Part shown: positions 211 to 6,163 of the stretch, in pieces
How the letters are laid out: each line of letters opens with the position of its first letter
How positions within the stretch are numbered: position 1 is the stretch's first letter
IMG/VR virus record: IMGVR_UViG_3300039286_000350
Span: 2,984-66,983 of that record
Length of the DNA: 64,000 bases
Origin: a virus
Strand: one strand, 5' to 3'
Position numbers and translations under genes: made by a program
Notes under the pieces: generated by a model
The model's database searches: none
What the model was told of the DNA's origin: nothing
What the model saw: the letters and a program-made list of their open reading frames with translations, nothing else

Positions 211-284
211 GGAGCACCGAAAGGGAATTGAACCCTCATCTGATGGTTGGAAGCCACCTGCACTATCCATTGTGCTACCGGTGC
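211..284 (-). tRNA. tRNA-Gly(TCC)
   Basis: Cloverleaf; anticodon arm GGTGG-CT TCC AA-CCATC; T loop TTCAATT. Confidence 0.92.
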
Positions 285-456
285 ATGAAGTTTGGAGACC
301 TCTACTGGATCCTTCGGTTTCTCCAACGGTGCCCAGGGTCGAGGAAGAACTCACTGAGTCGGGGAGGAGAGGGACCCAGTAAGCTGCTTGATCCAGCCCG
401 TTAGAGTAATACCGATATGAGTCCCACAGTAGAAGATCTCGTTCAGGATCTTTTAG

Positions 457-531
457 AGCCTCCGGCAGGATTTGAACCCGCGGCCAGTGGGGTAGAAACC
501 CACCGCTCTATCCAGACTGAGCTACGGAGGC
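457..531 (-). tRNA. tRNA-Arg(TCT)
   Basis: GCCTCCG acceptor; GTGGG-TT TCT AC-CCCAC. Confidence 0.93.
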
Positions 532-600
532 AGGTGGAGAGCAGCCGTGTGGGCATCCCAGCTCAGCCACGACAGCCTCAATCCAGGTCCCTACTCTCCA

Positions 601-674
601 GAGCCTCTGGGTGGATTCGAACCACCGACCATGACCTTCGGAAGGTCACACTCTGTCCACTGAGTTACAGAGGC
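601..674 (-). tRNA. tRNA-Arg(CCG)
   Basis: TGACC-TT CCG AA-GGTCA; GGTTCGAATCC. Confidence 0.93.
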
Positions 675-824
675 TTAATACGGGGCCGGGACCACGACGC
701 GGAGTGCCTGCCGTAAAGTCCCGGCTCCTACCCTAACCCCTTTCACTGCACTCCCTTATCCGGGGTGCGGTGCAGCTACTTGGTGACCCTCCGCAACACT
801 CCGCTTTAGCTCGGGTCCTGGGCA

Positions 825-899
825 GCACCTCCGGCTGGATTCGAACCAGCGACATCCGGTTTCGTAGACCGGCACTCTGTCCTGCTGAGTTACGGAGGT
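825..899 (-). tRNA. tRNA-Arg(ACG)
   Basis: CCGGT-CT ACG AA-ACCGG. Confidence 0.93.
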
Positions 900-903
900 A
901 AGT

Positions 904-1109
904 TCGTCTGGCAGATTACGGGTTCTTGACAGCGCACCCTAGTGGGTGATATCAAGTCAGGTTCTGATGTAACTGATCTGCTCCTCCACCATTCAGTGCG
1001 AAAGGAGCCATCCAATCGCAGGTGGTGTGCTTTGGCGAGTGGTCTGCAGACCACAGTGCCCGTAGAGCGGGTAAGGCTTTCCGCACCGGCCGCTTTACAC
1101 TACAGACGA
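904..1109 (-). ncRNA. Candidate structured ncRNA, unknown family
   Basis: Spacer closed by TCGTCTG/CAGACGA; internal hairpins; 16-bp palindrome GTGGTCTGCAGACCAC. Confidence 0.4.
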
Positions 1110-1110
1110 G

Positions 1111-1182
1111 CTGCTCCCCAGGGATTCGAACCCCGACCTTCATGGTCCAGAACCATGCGTCCTACCGTTAGACTAGAGAGCA
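1111..1182 (-). tRNA. tRNA-Gln(CTG)
   Basis: U1-A72; CATGG-TT CTG GA-CCATG. Confidence 0.93.
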
Positions 1183-1215
1183 ATGAAGGGACGTTGGATT
1201 AACCTACCAGGACAC

Positions 1216-1370
1216 GCAGTTAGCATACTAAGGTGGATCACACCGGTTCGGGTTCTTTGCGTCAAACAGGATAGCCCGGGCCTGACCGCCAGATTCACCT
1301 TTGATCCGCCGTTTCCGCATCGTGCGCCCGAAAGCGTGTTTTTGTACTCCGGCTGGGTTTCACCAACTGC
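1216..1370 (-). ncRNA. Candidate structured ncRNA, unknown family
   Basis: Terminal helix GCAGTTGG/CTAACTGC; internal AAGGTGAATC/GATCCACCTT; GAAA-capped hairpins. Confidence 0.45.
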
Positions 1371-1391
1371 CACTCCAGGGCAACGCCCCAG

Positions 1392-1466
1392 TAGCCCCTG
1401 CGGGATTTGAACCCACGCTTGACGGCTGAGAACCGCCTGTCCTAGGCCTGACTAGACGAAGGGGCC
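1392..1466 (-). tRNA. tRNA-Glu(CTC)
   Basis: GGCGG-TT CTC AG-CCGTC. Confidence 0.92.
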
Positions 1467-1585
1467 AAGTTGAAGGACAGCTAGCTTGGTGACATCGTGG
1501 TACAGTCGCCCACATTTCGCCTGATTCGGCGGTCACTTCAGCCCAGTCCACCCTGATCATGGGGCAGCCAGTTGTCGCTGTCCAG

Positions 1586-1659
1586 TGGTGCCTCTTGGGA
1601 TCGAACCAAGGACCTTCCCCTTATCAGAGGGATGCACACACCTGCCGTGCTCAGGCACC
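1586..1659 (-). tRNA. tRNA-Ile(GAT)
   Basis: TCCCT-CT GAT AA-GGGGA; acceptor GGTGCCT/AGGCACC. Confidence 0.9.
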
Positions 1660-1810
1660 AAATTCGGGTGAAGGCCACGTGATAGCTGGAATATAGCCAC
1701 CTTCACCCGGGGATTCCGTCTTTTTTGCTGGACACCTGCTAGATCTCACTACTCTACAGTAGCCACCAGGGCTTTTCTCGCAGGATTAAGCCGAGACCAC
1801 ATCCAGCAAA

Positions 1811-1883
1811 TGCTTCTCCCAGGATTCGAACCTGGACCGCGATCCTTTTCAGGGATCCGCTCTACCGTTGGAGCTAGAGAAGC
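1811..1883 (-). tRNA. tRNA-Phe(GAA)
   Basis: GATCC-CT GAA AA-GGATC. Confidence 0.93.
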
Positions 1884-2061
1884 AAGATGAAACCGCGAGG
1901 CCCACTCTAATGACATTTTCTGCACCGTCACAATGGACGAGCTTGCCTGAGTCAGCCATATTTGGGGCTCTGCCACTGGACTCCTCGAGGTAGCTACCCA
2001 GCGGGGCACTTTTGACCGTGAGCATTAGCCTAGGGCAGCACTCACGTCGTGGTCTCAGGGC

Positions 2062-2205
2062 TTATTTATGACTACCATCACGGATCTTATCCGCAACGAT
2101 GTCCAGCCCGACTGCATCGGCTACAGCAGCAGCTGCCTTAGCCGGGACGCCTTTGACGTTGATAATCGTCTTTCCGGACTCAGTTTTGAGAATTAGTGTG
2201 AACAT
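2062..2205 (-). CDS. Small hypothetical protein (47 aa, MFTLILKTESGKTIINVKGV...)
   Basis: ATG to TAA reading frame with purine-rich upstream sequence, inside the tRNA array; below the ORF-track cutoff. Confidence 0.55.
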   Translation of the reverse strand: MFTLILKTESGKTIINVKGVPAKAAAAVADAVGLDIVADKIRDGSHK

Positions 2206-2239
2206 GCTTCTTTATCGACCTCCGTCACAAGAAGCTTAG

Positions 2240-2312
2240 TGGAGAAGGACGGGATCGAACCGTCAACCTCCTGCTTGCAAGGCAGGTGCTCTTCCGATTG
2301 AGCTACTCCCCC
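2240..2312 (-). tRNA. tRNA-Ala(TGC)
   Basis: G3-U70; CCTGC-CT TGC AA-GCAGG. Confidence 0.94.
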
Positions 2313-2317
2313 ATTAA

Positions 2318-2381
2318 CCGGTGTTTTACCAATTAAACTACGATGCCGAAGCATCGACAGGACTTGAACCTGCATCTCCGG
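2318..2381 (-). ncRNA. Circularly permuted tRNA-like unit B (T arm before D arm; acceptor stem capped by UUCG)
   Basis: CCGG-AGAT-GCAGG TTCAAGT CCTGT-CGATGC TTCG GCATCG-TA-GTTT AATTGGTA AAAC-A-CCGG. Confidence 0.75.
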
Positions 2382-2384
2382 AGT

Positions 2385-2457
2385 TTCGGCGCTCTAGCCA
2401 GCTGAGCTACAGCAGCTACGTTGGCTGCTAGTGGGATTCGAACCCACGACCTCCGAA
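2385..2457 (-). ncRNA. Circularly permuted tRNA-like unit A
   Basis: TTCGG-AGGTC-GTGGG TTCGAAT CCCAC-TAGCAGC-[CAACGTA]-GCTGCTG-TA-GCTC AGCTGGCTA GAGC-G-CCGAA. Confidence 0.78.
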
Positions 2458-2467
2458 GTCGTTGAGG

Positions 2468-2556
2468 CGGAAGGCCGAGGAGTCGAACCCCCACCGGCGA
2501 TCGCCGGTGACCGGTTTTCAAGACCGGAGAGCAGACCAACCTGCTCTGGACCTTCC
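2468..2556 (-). tRNA. tRNA-Ser(TGA) with 8/4 acceptor/T-stem fold
   Basis: Acceptor GGAAGGTC/GGCCTTCC (8 bp); T stem GGGG/CCTC (4 bp); 6-bp D stem; long variable arm; loop CT TGA AA; G73. Confidence 0.85.
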
Positions 2557-2565
2557 GTGAAGTTT

Positions 2566-2644
2566 GTGGGAGTCGGGAATCGAACCCGAGCCACCCATTG
2601 CCTTATGCAAGGCGGGTATGCTACCAACGAACACCGCTTCCCAC
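2566..2644 (-). pseudogene. Aberrant tRNA-like element with expanded anticodon arm
   Basis: Good T arm TCGGG TTCGATT CCCGA and D arm; bulged acceptor; anticodon region CCCGCCTTGCATAAGGCAATGGG has no 7-nt loop. Confidence 0.55.
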
Positions 2645-2699
2645 GCCCGTACCACGTTGCAACGTGTCGCCCGCTAAGGCAGTTAGGGCTTTGGCCAAG

Positions 2700-2786
2700 C
2701 GGATGGAGTAGGATTCGAACCTACGGATCCAACAAAGGATCGGCGAGTTAGCAACCCGCTGCATTCGGCCTCTCTGCCATCCATCC
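2700..2786 (-). tRNA. tRNA-Ser(GCT)
   Basis: Canonical 7/5 fold, long variable arm; GCGGG-TT GCT AA-CTCGC. Confidence 0.93.
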
Positions 2787-2947
2787 GTGCACCTGCGTCC
2801 GTTCGGGCTCCGTGGGATATCCCTTGGTTCCTACTTGAGACGCAGGATCTACCTCATCAGCCTAGGGGTAAGGGTTCCCTAGGAGCATCCGTTCGCCGGG
2901 GCAGACTTACTATCTGCACTGATAAGAAGAGCTATCCTAGGTACTAG

Positions 2948-3032
2948 GCCCCCGCTCTACCATTGAGCTACACGCCGTGTAGGCGATCACCTTGGCCGGC
3001 GTGGCCGGGCTCGAACCGGCAACAGTCGAGGC
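2948..3032 (-). ncRNA. Circularly permuted tRNA-like unit C (Pro-type acceptor, encoded NCCA)
   Basis: GCCTC..GCCGG TTCGAGC CCGGC-CACGCCG-G-CCA-[15 nt]-CGGCGTG-TA-GCTC AATGGTA GAGC-G-GGGGC. Confidence 0.8.
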
Positions 3033-3084
3033 TGTTCCCCAGGATTTCAAGGAGGGCGTATCTAGAATCCGCCAGTCCCTAAAG

Positions 3085-3156
3085 CTGCACACCCAGGATT
3101 CGAACCTGGAACCGTCTCCTTAACAGGGAGCTGCACTGCCGTTGTGCTAGTGTGCA
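3085..3156 (-). tRNA. tRNA-Asn(GTT)
   Basis: U1-A72; loop CT GTT AA. Confidence 0.9.
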
Positions 3157-3278
3157 ATGTTCTGGGCACGGAGGAGGCCATTGGAGCCGCTGGCAAACGA
3201 GTCAGTACCTCTGTCCTAGCTGCATGAACGCATCACCAGCAGTGCCAACCTGTGGCCGTTCACTGGAGCCGCCCAGAG

Positions 3279-3362
3279 TGCCTTCAACAGGAGTCGAACC
3301 TGTACGCTCTTTCGAGCACTGGTCCCTCAGACCAGGGTGTCTACCAATTCCACCATGAAGGC
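3279..3362 (-). tRNA. tRNA-Leu(GAG)
   Basis: CTGGT-CT GAG GG-ACCAG; long variable arm. Confidence 0.93.
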
Positions 3363-3514
3363 AAATGTTTGCGTCAGTATTGTCCGTTTCTAGGTAGGCA
3401 ATACACTACGATCAAGATCGTCCACGCTCGGAGATGAGTTAATATCCCACCACCCCGCTTGTACGCGGATTTCACGGGTACCGAGTACGATTCTCAAACG
3501 CGTATCCGACGCAG

Positions 3515-3595
3515 TGTGGGATGATGGACTCGAACCACTCCCCGAAGGACCTGGTTTACAGCCAGGCTACAGGTTCCAACCTGCTTACATCCCAC
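3515..3595 (-). tRNA. tRNA-Tyr(GTA) with 8/4 fold and elongated D arm
   Basis: Acceptor GTGGGATG/CATCCCAC; T stem GTGG/CCAT; CCTGG-CT GTA AA-CCAGG; A73. Confidence 0.8.
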
Positions 3596-3718
3596 AAGTT
3601 TTCAGTGGACGCCCTTATGGTCGGGTCTGTTTGATGAAATGAACTTATCCCTTACCGCGACCACGCGAAGGGTCCACCGTTAAGAACTGGCCCAATCTAG
3701 GGAGGATCAGGGCCAGAG

Positions 3719-4106
3719 TGGAGGCGGTGGGAGTCGAACCCACGTGCACGGACCGGATTGCCATCAGAGTTCTAGCAGCTTGTCATCGTGGGATCAGAAC
3801 CAGGAGGGCTACGGTGACTACCCTCTCTGCCCTGGCTTACTACGCACAGGTGCACCACCCCGTTATTACGTCCGGGGGCAGACGTACATGTACCTCAATC
3901 GGTTCCCCACTTCTGTTGCCCCGTGTGAGGAGACGGCGCAGCAGCTGTTAGGCTACTGCGAGTGCGCCCGAGTTGGCGAAGGCCTCAGCCTCTGCCAGCC
4001 CGTCCGCAACGTATGCATCGCCTTGTATAGGCTTGAGCCTTTAGGTCTGCTCATACCGCTGCACTGATGGGTCTCCATTGACCATGTCGAAGCCAATTTC
4101 GCCCCC
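3719..4106 (-). ncRNA. ssrA: tmRNA; predicted tag (A)GDAYVADGLAEAEAFANSGALAVA at 3948-4022
   Basis: 5' GGGGGCGAAATTGGCTTCGAC; 3' GTGGGTTCGACTCCCACCGCCTCCA; G3-U70; internal reading frame ending LAVA-TAA. Confidence 0.93.
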
Positions 4107-4201
4107 ATGTTTACGGGTTACCCCTTCCCGTCCCTGGTGAGACTCACCTCGCCAGCAAAGCTGACGCCAGGCCCTCTAACCAATACGTGCTGCATGTACA
4201 G

Positions 4202-4275
4202 TCGGCGTGGTAGGATTCGAACCTACGATTACATGGTCCCAAACCATGGGTGTTACCAGGCTACACTACACGCCG
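4202..4275 (-). tRNA. tRNA-Pro(TGG)
   Basis: C1-G72; CATGG-TT TGG GA-CCATG. Confidence 0.93.
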
Positions 4276-4308
4276 AGAACGCCGGTTTTGCTCTCCCAGA
4301 TCCGGTAA

Positions 4309-4470
4309 CTGGGAACCACCCGGTCCGATTGTCGCGACCGCACAAACCAGGACACGAGGAGCTTGCTCCACGTGGCTTGTGGTTAATCAAGTGGTCGGGG
4401 CTAAGGAGGGCAGTATCCGGATGTCCGACCATGCTAGCCTTATTACCCCTCGCAATCAAAGCGATCCCAG
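4309..4470 (-). ncRNA. Candidate structured ncRNA, unknown family
   Basis: Closed by CTGGGATCGC/GTGGTTCCCAG; internal TGGTCGG/CCGACCA and other helices. Confidence 0.4.
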
Positions 4471-4501
4471 TGTACTACTGTATCATCTCACTGATCACTA
4501 G

Positions 4502-4574
4502 TACCCATCCAGGGACTCGAACCCCGAACCTACGGCTTGTAAAACCGTTGCTCTCCCAATTGAGCTAGACGGGC
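4502..4574 (-). tRNA. tRNA-Val(TAC)
   Basis: ACGGT-TT TAC AA-GCCGT. Confidence 0.92.
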
Positions 4575-4577
4575 AAG

Positions 4578-5150
4578 TTGTGTCGGGTAGTGGCCTCCGG
4601 TGCGGATCAGCACCCTATCTACCTCCGAGCAGTGGAGTAACCACCGGCCCGACACGTGCTGGCCTAGCCTGACCATAGCCAGCTCGATATGCCCTTCATC
4701 AGGAAGGTATGTGTTTTTGAGTGGTATCTCCACAGCCCAGCAGAATCTAGCTCCCTGGGCAATGCTGACCGGCGTAGATCGGCCTTCTTGCGAAGTTGGC
4801 CCGTGGTTTAACCTGCTTACCGAGCAGCAGGATCAGTCGTGGACGCCACAACGCCCCACTGACATGTCGCTTTTCAGGTCTCATGTGGTTACCTGCGGCT
4901 TTCACGGGTTGCTGCATGTCACCATGCATACTTTCGCCCGAGTCGACTACCGGCGGATCGAAGTGGTGGACGCCGCCTTCTGGCTGCGGATGGATAGTCC
5001 GCACCAGCCAGTCTTATTCTCCGCTGTGGGAATCCCTTCCCGCACGGTCTTGTCGCCACCCTCTAGCGTTATTCCCGTACTACCTGGTCGACCCTTAAAC
5101 GGGTTGAGAGGCCTCCGGGGACTACTATGGGCCGTGGCAAGCGCCCTGGT
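4578..5150 (-). ncRNA. Large structured ncRNA, probably ROOL-like
   Basis: ~570 nt between two tRNAs with many helices; motifs GAGAATAAG..GGTGCGGACTATCC..GAAAGTATGCATGGTGACATGCAGCAACCC..GAGAC..GTCCAC match my recollection of the ROOL consensus (not searched). Confidence 0.55.
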
Positions 5151-5154
5151 ACAG

Positions 5155-5241
5155 TGCCTCCGACAGGAATCGAACCTGTACACGCCTTTCGGCGCACTAG
5201 GGCCTAAGCCTAGCGTGTCTGCCTAATTCCACCACAGAGGC
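5155..5241 (-). tRNA. tRNA-Leu(TAG)
   Basis: CTAGG-CT TAG GC-CCTAG; long variable arm. Confidence 0.93.
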
Positions 5242-5381
5242 AAGGGATCATCGCTGCGGTTCTAACCCGCACCTTCTCCGTTCCCGGGCTGCTCTACATG
5301 AGCTTACGATGAGATCTTGGGAAGCCAATGTGCATTGACCTCCTCACCGAACCGTTTCCAGCACAGTTGTGTCGTTCGGTA

Positions 5382-5455
5382 TGCCTGTCCCTGGGATCGA
5401 ACCAGGACTGCCCGGATTTTAAGTCCGGTGCCTCTACCGATTGGGCTAGACAGGC
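5382..5455 (-). tRNA. tRNA-Leu(TAA), short variable arm
   Basis: CCGGA-CT TAA AA-TCCGG; variable region GCAGT; A73. Confidence 0.85.
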
Positions 5456-5459
5456 GAAG

Positions 5460-5765
5460 ATTCCAGGGTCTAGGACTTTCGCTGGGCAGCGTATCGCTCA
5501 TCGTTCAGCATGAGCCGAGCCACGGGAGGCCACCTGGTTGGCCAAGTGCACATGGGAGTAGTTCGTTCGGGCTACTGTTACCTCTGGGACGCTCCCCAGA
5601 CCCATGGCGAAGTTTTGAGTGGAAGGCCCTCTCCCTGGTCGCCGCCTCTACAGAGAGTCAACATCACCGATCCCTACGACCGGCTAGCACGGTATGGTTA
5701 CCGCTGATGAAGAGAGGTTGGTACCCTTCCATCCCCGGATTGAATATGTCTGGCTCCGGGAGGCC
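5460..5765 (-). ncRNA. Candidate ~300 nt multi-hairpin ncRNA
   Basis: Hairpins CTGGG/CCCAG, GTAG/CTAC, GGCCA/TGGCC, GCTCAT/ATGAGC; no convincing ORF. Confidence 0.4.
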
Positions 5766-5770
5766 AGTAG

Positions 5771-5857
5771 TGCCCAAAGTAGGAGTCGAACCTACACGCC
5801 CCTTTCGGGGACACCGGGTTTTGAGTCCGGCGCGTCTACCAGTTCCGCCATTCGGGC
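5771..5857 (-). tRNA. tRNA-Leu(CAA)
   Basis: Loop CT CAA AA; long variable arm. Confidence 0.92.
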
Positions 5858-5910
5858 TATTCAGTTGTTACTATTCTATCGGCCCCACTTCAGGTAACTT
5901 GAGTGGGAAG

Positions 5911-5983
5911 TGCTCCCGCCAGGGTTCGAACCTGGGACCGTCGGATTAAGAGTCCGCTACTCTACCAGCTGAGTTACGAGAGC
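5911..5983 (-). tRNA. tRNA-Lys(CTT)
   Basis: Loop CT CTT AA. Confidence 0.93.
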
Positions 5984-5993
5984 ATATGTGAAG

Positions 5994-6075
5994 AGGGCCA
6001 GCGGGATTCGAACCCGCTCCCGGTCACATCATGAACAGACCGGTTAGCCTACGGTTGGACGCCCAACCTGGACCC
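5994..6075 (-). pseudogene. Non-canonical tRNA-like element
   Basis: T arm GCGGG TTCGAAT CCCGC; bulged acceptor GGGTCCA/TGGCCC; hairpins GGTTGG/CCAACC and CCGGTC/GACCGG with a 12-nt loop. Confidence 0.5.
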
Positions 6076-6089
6076 ATGTAGTTTTTAGG

Positions 6090-6163
6090 AGCCGGATACA
6101 GGAATCGAACCCGCGGCCTTCGCTTTACAAGAGCGCTGCTCTACCAACGTGAGCTAATCCGGC
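6090..6163 (-). tRNA. tRNA-Thr(TGT)
   Basis: Loop CT TGT AA. Confidence 0.93.

Follow-up and report, generated by a model that had tools for sequence, protein, structure and literature searches.

An 81-nt gene in the tRNA array of a phage probably encodes a working tyrosine tRNA that departs from the canonical cloverleaf in having 8 bp in the acceptor stem and 4 bp in the T stem (8/4). As judged by sequence comparison, the gene is a diverged member of a phage-borne family of 8/4 tRNA-Tyr genes. The window that we analysed comprises 64,000 nt (positions 2,984-66,983) of the IMG/VR record IMGVR_UViG_3300039286_000350, which is 108 kb long, is classed as a provirus and has a completeness estimate of 87%. 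The gene lies within a phage array of tRNA genes and a tmRNA (211..6163, minus strand; ARAGORN and Rfam), in which ARAGORN called 20 tRNA genes and the tmRNA, and to which Rfam added two tRNA-clan matches. The array extends upstream beyond the window, and the whole record holds about 29-30 tRNAs and the tmRNA according to ARAGORN, with the gene at 3595..3515 as its sole tRNA-Tyr.

The boundaries of the gene (3515..3595, minus strand; ARAGORN, ViennaRNA and covariance model) are exact, with G1 at 3595 and the discriminator A at 3515. CCA is not encoded (the downstream bases are CTGC), and the base at -1 is U, as in most tRNAs of the array. All parts are on the minus strand. The 5′ strand of the acceptor stem, GTGGGATG (positions 1-8; 3588..3595; fold and covariation), ends in G8, which forms the extra eighth pair, and is followed by a 3-nt linker, TAA (3585..3587; sequence and alignment), where most members of the family have AAA. 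The D arm (3569..3584; fold and alignment) consists of a 6-bp stem, GCAGGT/ACCTGT, whose first pair is G-U, and a UGGA tetraloop carrying the equivalents of G18 and G19. A single A separates it from the anticodon arm (3549..3567; fold and covariation), made of a 6-bp stem, GCCTGG/CCAGGT, and the loop CUGUAAA, with the anticodon GUA at 3559..3557 (sequence). The variable region of 10 nt (3539..3548; fold and covariation) forms a 2-bp mini arm, CC-UUCG-GG, followed by an unpaired G and an A that sits, also unpaired, at the equivalent of position 49. Then come the T arm (3524..3538; fold and covariation), with a 4-bp stem, GTGG/CCAT, and the loop TTCGAGT, and the 3′ strand of the acceptor stem, CATCCCAC, whose first C pairs with G8 and which, together with A73 at 3515, occupies 3515..3523 (fold and covariation). 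The gene thus carries the identity elements G1-C72, A73 and GUA as well as a mini variable arm capped by UUCG; an earlier note made from the letters of the window had read G1-C72, A73 and GUA as intact, and we read the same.

The minimum-free-energy structure computed by ViennaRNA is the 8/4 cloverleaf, at -33.7 kcal/mol, in agreement with the 8-bp acceptor, 4-bp T stem, long D hairpin and UUCG mini variable arm that the note had proposed. In this ensemble the G8-C pair has a probability of 0.975, the probability of the A-C pair that would extend the T stem to 5 bp is 0, and the 8/4 fold is better by 2.5 kcal/mol than the same fold without the G8-C pair. ARAGORN reported the gene as tRNA-Tyr(gta), but only in a forced 7/5 form that has a D stem of 3 bp and contains an A-C mismatch. 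RF00005, the general tRNA model, did not match the gene at its gathering score, or at E<=0.001 over the whole record, and the best Rfam match was to tRNA-Sec (RF01852; 35.7 bits, below the gathering score of 47). We rejected a selenocysteine identity on this score and on the anticodon, which is GUA and not UCA.

The family was collected by scanning with three patterns anchored in the loops. The first, which required a D loop TGGA at a fixed spacing from CTGTAAA and then GGTTCGA, was run against viral contigs, where, among the matches listed, 115 were scored and 7 of them had an 8/4 signature resembling the window gene. Among these same listed matches 107 of the 115 scored as 7/5, most of them belonging to the commonest type, which has C at position 8, a site of near-universal U8. 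A second, sharper pattern, the only one to require A at position 49, matched 37 viral contigs and, in prokaryotes (one genome for each of 185,579 species), only 3 contigs, all of them short contigs of metagenome-assembled genomes, one of which (7.5 kb) carries 14 tRNA genes. The third pattern, in which position 49 and the T stem were unconstrained, matched 41 viral and 79 metagenome stretches, the latter from marine, lake and brine samples. The two family-specific patterns (37 and 41 viral matches) took in mostly the same contigs, and some contigs occur in both the viral and the metagenome collections; duplicates and false matches were removed before counting. The final set comprises 86 distinct 8/4 Tyr sequences including the window gene, so that the search for homologs suggested in the note recovered 85 others. 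Because the D loop (TTGGA) and the anticodon and T loops were set by the patterns, constancy there, anticodon included, is by construction, and relatives bearing other anticodons were beyond their reach; positions 1, 8, 65, 72 and 73 were free in every pattern.

The window gene is the most diverged member of this family, its nearest relative being 83% identical. Its D stem has 6 bp and a UGGA loop, whereas the family mostly has 5 bp and a loop of 6-7 nt; the variable arm ranges from 2 to 4 bp across the family. Viral contigs gave zero matches to an exact 39-mer and to a pattern requiring the 10-mer AGCAGGTTGG, and among cultured phages blastn with the region and with a typical family member returned 7/5 tRNA-Tyr genes, through their 3′ part, and no 8/4 relative. 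The note had asked whether the same form is already catalogued in related phages: it proved to be common in contigs of uncultured phages, but turned up neither in the searches of cultured-phage records nor in the literature searched.

Covariation across the family decides between the two layouts. On an alignment of 32 family sequences (A1), 95.9% of the cells assigned to helices by the 8/4 structure are paired and 19 of its 25 pairs have changed on both sides; neither value was matched by any of 500 shuffles, and slid controls collapsed. The diagnostic pair 8-65 is GC in 20 of the 32 sequences, UA in 7, AU in 3 and CG in 2, and is unpaired in none, while the pair 49-65 of the 7/5 alternative is unpaired in 29. 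When all 86 sequences were considered, 8-65 was formed in every one (GC 54, UA 19, AU 9, CG 3, UG 1), and position 49 (A 75, C 9, G 1, U 1) was able to pair with 65 in 8. Pairs of the variable arm also covary (CG/AU at one; CG/UG/UA/AU at another), and the sixth pair of the anticodon stem is formed in all 32 aligned sequences (GU 28, AU 4). The 8/4 layout is thus maintained by compensatory changes across 86 distinct sequences. An alternative, that of a common 7/5 tRNA-Tyr in which A49 and C65 are mismatched and position 8 holds an unusual base, is suggested by the ARAGORN report and by the likeness of its 3′ two-thirds to 7/5 phage tRNA-Tyr genes. However, 8-65 changes among four Watson-Crick pair types without once being lost, the mostly adenine position 49 can seldom serve as the partner of 65, removal of the G8-C pair carries the energetic cost given above, and the Sec-type model fits the gene better than RF00005, which fails. 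We therefore regard a 7/5 tRNA as hardly credible; a 7/5 fold, which the note had named as the result that would speak against it, is contradicted both by the null probability of the A-C pair and by the covariation of 8-65. One further pair of alignment A1, 5-81, is non-standard in 16 of the 32 sequences, those of the GGGAACTG/CAGGTCCC group (A-G in the sequences checked), and the window gene does not have this non-standard pair.

Membership of the window gene in the family was assessed with a covariance model (R1) built from 45 other members, with the gene itself excluded. R1 matched the gene with 87 bits (E 5e-22) over model positions 1-81 and with zero non-standard pairs; the next-best match in the window was an 8/4 tRNA-Ser with 35.8 bits, and ordinary tRNAs reached at most 26 bits. 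Where the D and anticodon stems of the gene differ from the consensus of the family, the changes are compensatory. These results also bear on whether the gene is a decaying pseudogene, as might be supposed from its being missed by the general tRNA model and from its standing as the family's most divergent sequence. All its helices are intact, nothing non-standard appears against the family model, the differences in the two stems are compensatory, and it is the phage's only tRNA-Tyr; decay is accordingly highly improbable. The phage tRNA-Tyr is a real design, represented by a widespread family in uncultured phages, and not a damaged gene.

Although the patterns left these positions unconstrained, A73 is present in 85 of the 86 sequences and G1-C72 in 83, while the remaining acceptor pairs vary freely. 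One member of the family (L159:4006-4088, minus strand) combines the 8/4 body with C1-G72, a tyrosine identity pair of the archaeal, eukaryal or CPR type. Bacterial tyrosine identity resides in A73, G1-C72 and the anticodon (PMC9976931), and the C-terminal S4-like domain of bacterial TyrRS binds the long variable arm of tRNA-Tyr (PMC5370408). The variable arm of the family is present and covaries, but with only 2-4 bp it is much shorter than that of bacterial tRNA-Tyr, and recognition by the C-terminal domain is therefore not assured. We applied a scripted 8/4-versus-7/5 classifier to the tRNAs of the loci that carry the family. In almost all of these arrays ARAGORN finds no tRNA-Tyr besides the 8/4 one; among their other tRNAs a consistent 8/4 signature was seen only in some Ser(UGA/CGA) genes, which have G73 and long arms, and five further tRNAs scored as 8/4, mostly with an imperfect T stem. 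The 8/4 Ser(UGA/CGA) genes adjoin the 8/4 Tyr gene in five of the loci (L126, L138, L145, L151 and L152).

The window itself holds such a pair. An 8/4 tRNA-Ser(UGA) with G73 and a long variable arm (2469..2556, minus strand; Rfam, R1 and 10-mer scan) lies about 1 kb from the tRNA-Tyr in the same array and also carries AGCAGGTTGG. This tRNA-Ser was missed by ARAGORN and matched Rfam tRNA-Sec with 54.3 bits, exceeding the gathering score of 47, and pipelines would therefore take it for a selenocysteine tRNA. The note had inferred from the shared 10-mer that the two genes have a common origin and that the tRNA-Tyr arose by an anticodon switch. The sharing itself is real: the window has just two copies of AGCAGGTTGG, one per 8/4 tRNA, with a chance expectation of 0.22, and 2 of 100 shuffles reached two copies. 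Its AG and TTGG columns, however, are constant in the retrieved Tyr family (TTGG being fixed by all three patterns and AG by the third only), and within it the four stem bases CAGG alone are specific to the window gene. The pairing register of the 10-mer differs between the two tRNAs, and the tRNA-Tyr is no closer to the 8/4 tRNA-Ser (72% identity) than to the ordinary tRNA-Ser(GCU) (73%). Since the gene is, moreover, a full-length member of the Tyr family by R1, in which the D stem elsewhere is GTCG.../...CGGC, unlike that of the window gene, we rejected descent from the adjoining tRNA-Ser by anticodon switch as unsupported.

The same note had raised the prospect that the tRNA is charged with serine and mistranslates tyrosine codons, as a missense tRNA akin to the allo-tRNAs would. 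Allo-tRNAs have the same 8/4 scaffold, a long D stem and an anticodon stem of 6 bp, and many of them combine serine identity with non-serine anticodons (Mukai et al., PMC5389517); the tRNA-Ser with the common 10-mer is, besides, close at hand. Nevertheless, the A73 kept throughout the family stands against the G73 or U73 of Ser-type allo-tRNAs, and its arm of 2-4 bp against the long arms and G73 of the 8/4 Ser tRNAs resident in the same arrays; G1-C72 together with A73 fits bacterial tyrosine identity, and dozens of phage tRNA sets that are otherwise standard have no tRNA-Tyr but the 8/4 form. Charging by SerRS with insertion of serine at tyrosine codons is consequently very unlikely.

Going by the identity elements, the gene most likely yields a functional tRNA that the host TyrRS charges with tyrosine. 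Searches of the record found no encoded TyrRS, which makes the host enzyme the likely charging enzyme, and no encoded CCA-adding enzyme. The gene would be transcribed together with the rest of the array, host RNase P would trim the 5′ end of the transcript, next to the U at -1, and the host CCA-adding enzyme would complete the 3′ end. In the predicted structure the 8-bp acceptor stem stacks on the 4-bp T stem, keeping a 12-bp acceptor branch. A host TyrRS of the bacterial type would then attach tyrosine by way of A73, G1-C72, GUA and the small variable arm. EF-Tu recognizes the 12-bp acceptor branch, according to Mukai et al. 2017 (PMC5389517), and would be expected to accept the tRNA-Tyr because this branch is preserved. 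As the phage's sole tRNA-Tyr, the product would decode UAY codons.

Alternatively, the gene could specify a conserved tRNA-shaped RNA that acts outside decoding, for example as a decoy for a host nuclease or in some other non-translational role. There is precedent in irregular 8/4 tRNAs, some of which are charged yet unused in translation, or are inactive in Escherichia coli (PMC5389517). The family, however, fills the tyrosine slot of near-complete tRNA sets, nearly always with no second tRNA-Tyr beside it; the identity elements at the acceptor end are conserved where the patterns imposed nothing; and what an L shape requires is retained as well, namely the 12-bp branch, the T loop and the GG in the D loop. 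A role outside decoding is thus unlikely, although less so than the alternatives considered above, and we favour the working tyrosine tRNA.

Phages that carry the 8/4 Tyr family share almost no proteins with the window phage: tblastn of all its ORFs against the family-bearing loci retrieved gave two weak matches. Its major capsid protein has relatives at only 30-36% identity (about 36% to phages of Gordonia, Mycobacterium and Microbacterium). Of the proteins adjoining the array, a 489-aa ORF and DnaB had no relatives in viral contigs, and a search of 5.8 billion proteins with the 489-aa ORF returned the self match alone.

Other RNA elements of the record were also noted. The tmRNA (window 3716-4106, minus strand), directly upstream of the tRNA-Tyr gene, encodes the tag peptide GDAYVADGLAEAEAFANSGALAVA and barely reaches the Rfam gathering score (48 bits against 47). 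A tRNA-like element of 68 nt at 2349-2416 (minus strand) scores 31.2 bits with RF00005; its D and T arms are normal, but its anticodon arm is stunted and its 3′ end leads into a CGATGC-TTCG-GCATCG hairpin in place of the acceptor strand. A 74-nt tRNA at 5382-5455 (minus strand) bears the leucine anticodon UAA on a class I body, with a 5-nt variable loop and no long arm; it is the third-best match of the 8/4 Tyr covariance model in the window, at 26 bits, and short 'Leu(taa)' genes recur in the arrays of other phages. Upstream of the window, a 97-nt tRNA (L002:2407-2503) with the anticodon UUC (Glu) has about 24 nt inserted in its D loop; RF00005 matches it with 65.4 bits, yet ARAGORN did not call it.

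With this family tyrosine joins the short list of amino acids that have natural 8/4 tRNAs, on the strength of covariation and beyond one odd gene. The existence of a covariation-backed 8/4 Tyr family means that the 7/5 rule has been broken repeatedly in phage tRNA sets, and since RF00005 fails and ARAGORN forces a 7/5 fold, inventories of phage tRNAs under-report or misfold its members. A natural tRNA-Tyr that places bacterial identity elements on another scaffold is a test case for what TyrRS, RNase P, EF-Tu and defence nucleases require, and may serve as a scaffold in tRNA engineering.

One possible reason for keeping this body plan lies in phage defence. The PtuAB proteins of Septu and of retron-Eco7 cut the variable arm of the host tRNA-Tyr, and the tRNA-Tyr of phage T5 is reported to resist PtuAB owing to its distinct variable loop (PMC13096335, PMC11555353). 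By analogy, the 8/4 tRNA-Tyr could be a counter-defence device, which its remodelled core and mini variable arm would turn into a poor substrate for tRNA-Tyr nucleases of the PtuAB type while the host TyrRS would still charge it. We put this forward tentatively, as a conjecture with well under an even chance behind it; if true, it would explain why very different phages keep the 8/4 plan for tyrosine in particular. Like the 8/4 form, the T5 tRNA-Tyr is phage-encoded and has a variable region unlike that of the host, but it is a 7/5 cloverleaf, and its likeness to the family is one of analogy only.

Among cultured phages, the 3′ two-thirds of the window gene (the anticodon arm, variable region, T arm and 3′ acceptor strand) match by blastn, at 77-79%, the 7/5 tRNA-Tyr genes of coliphage PJNS034, of T5-like phages (Epseptimavirus) and of mycobacteriophage PegLeg. 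All of them fold as 7/5 and have short variable arms and the same identity elements. That of PJNS034 even has the same acceptor, GTGGGAT/ATCCCAC, with a T stem of GGTGG/CCATC. In the 7/5 phage tRNA-Tyr genes, however, position 8 is U, 49 pairs with 65 and a D stem of 3-4 bp closes a large loop, where the window gene has G8, A49 and a long D hairpin; relative to PJNS034, the changes U8 to G and G49 to A thus move the partner of C65 from position 49 to position 8.

The 8/4 forms already described are the tRNA-Ser and tRNA-His of phages, the Cys and Sec forms, and the allo-tRNAs, according to Mukai et al. (2017, Nucleic Acids Res 45:2776, PMC5389517), who name Ser and His alone for phages; that 8/4 tRNAs are reported for Ser, His and allo-tRNAs, as the note had stated, accords with this source. 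A 2020 review lists nothing beyond the Ser, His, Cys, Sec and allo-tRNA forms, and the non-subscription literature that we searched yielded no natural 8/4 tRNA-Tyr, so that the family is apparently previously undescribed. The window gene shows the features by which Mukai et al. recognize (8/4) tRNAs, namely the 8+4 branch, a small loop on a lengthened D stem, and an anticodon stem of 6 bp. With the phage Ser and His tRNAs it has in common the 8+4 branch, the location in phage tRNA clusters and an anticodon that fits the presumed identity, as in an ordinary working isoacceptor, and it co-occurs with an 8/4 tRNA-Ser in one array; it differs from them in its tyrosine identity (A73, G1-C72, GUA) and in the mini variable hairpin, of 2-4 bp in the family. 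Bacterial tRNA-Sec (RF01852) is like it in its lengthened acceptor stem, in a D stem of 6 bp that closes a loop of 4 nt, and in an anticodon stem of 6 bp, but the Tyr gene has GUA and not UCA, lacks the long variable arm and is 8/4 in place of the usual bacterial 8/5. The allo-tRNAs (8/4 and 9/3; Clostridia, Proteobacteria and Acidobacteria) resemble it in the 8/4 branch, the long D stem with a tetraloop and the 6-bp anticodon stem. They are set apart by a long variable arm, mostly G73 or U73 (serine identity) and a mismatched anticodon; the window gene, with its variable region of 10 nt and A73, lacks both the long arm and the discriminator of Ser-type allo-tRNAs, and combines its mini arm with an anticodon that matches its identity.
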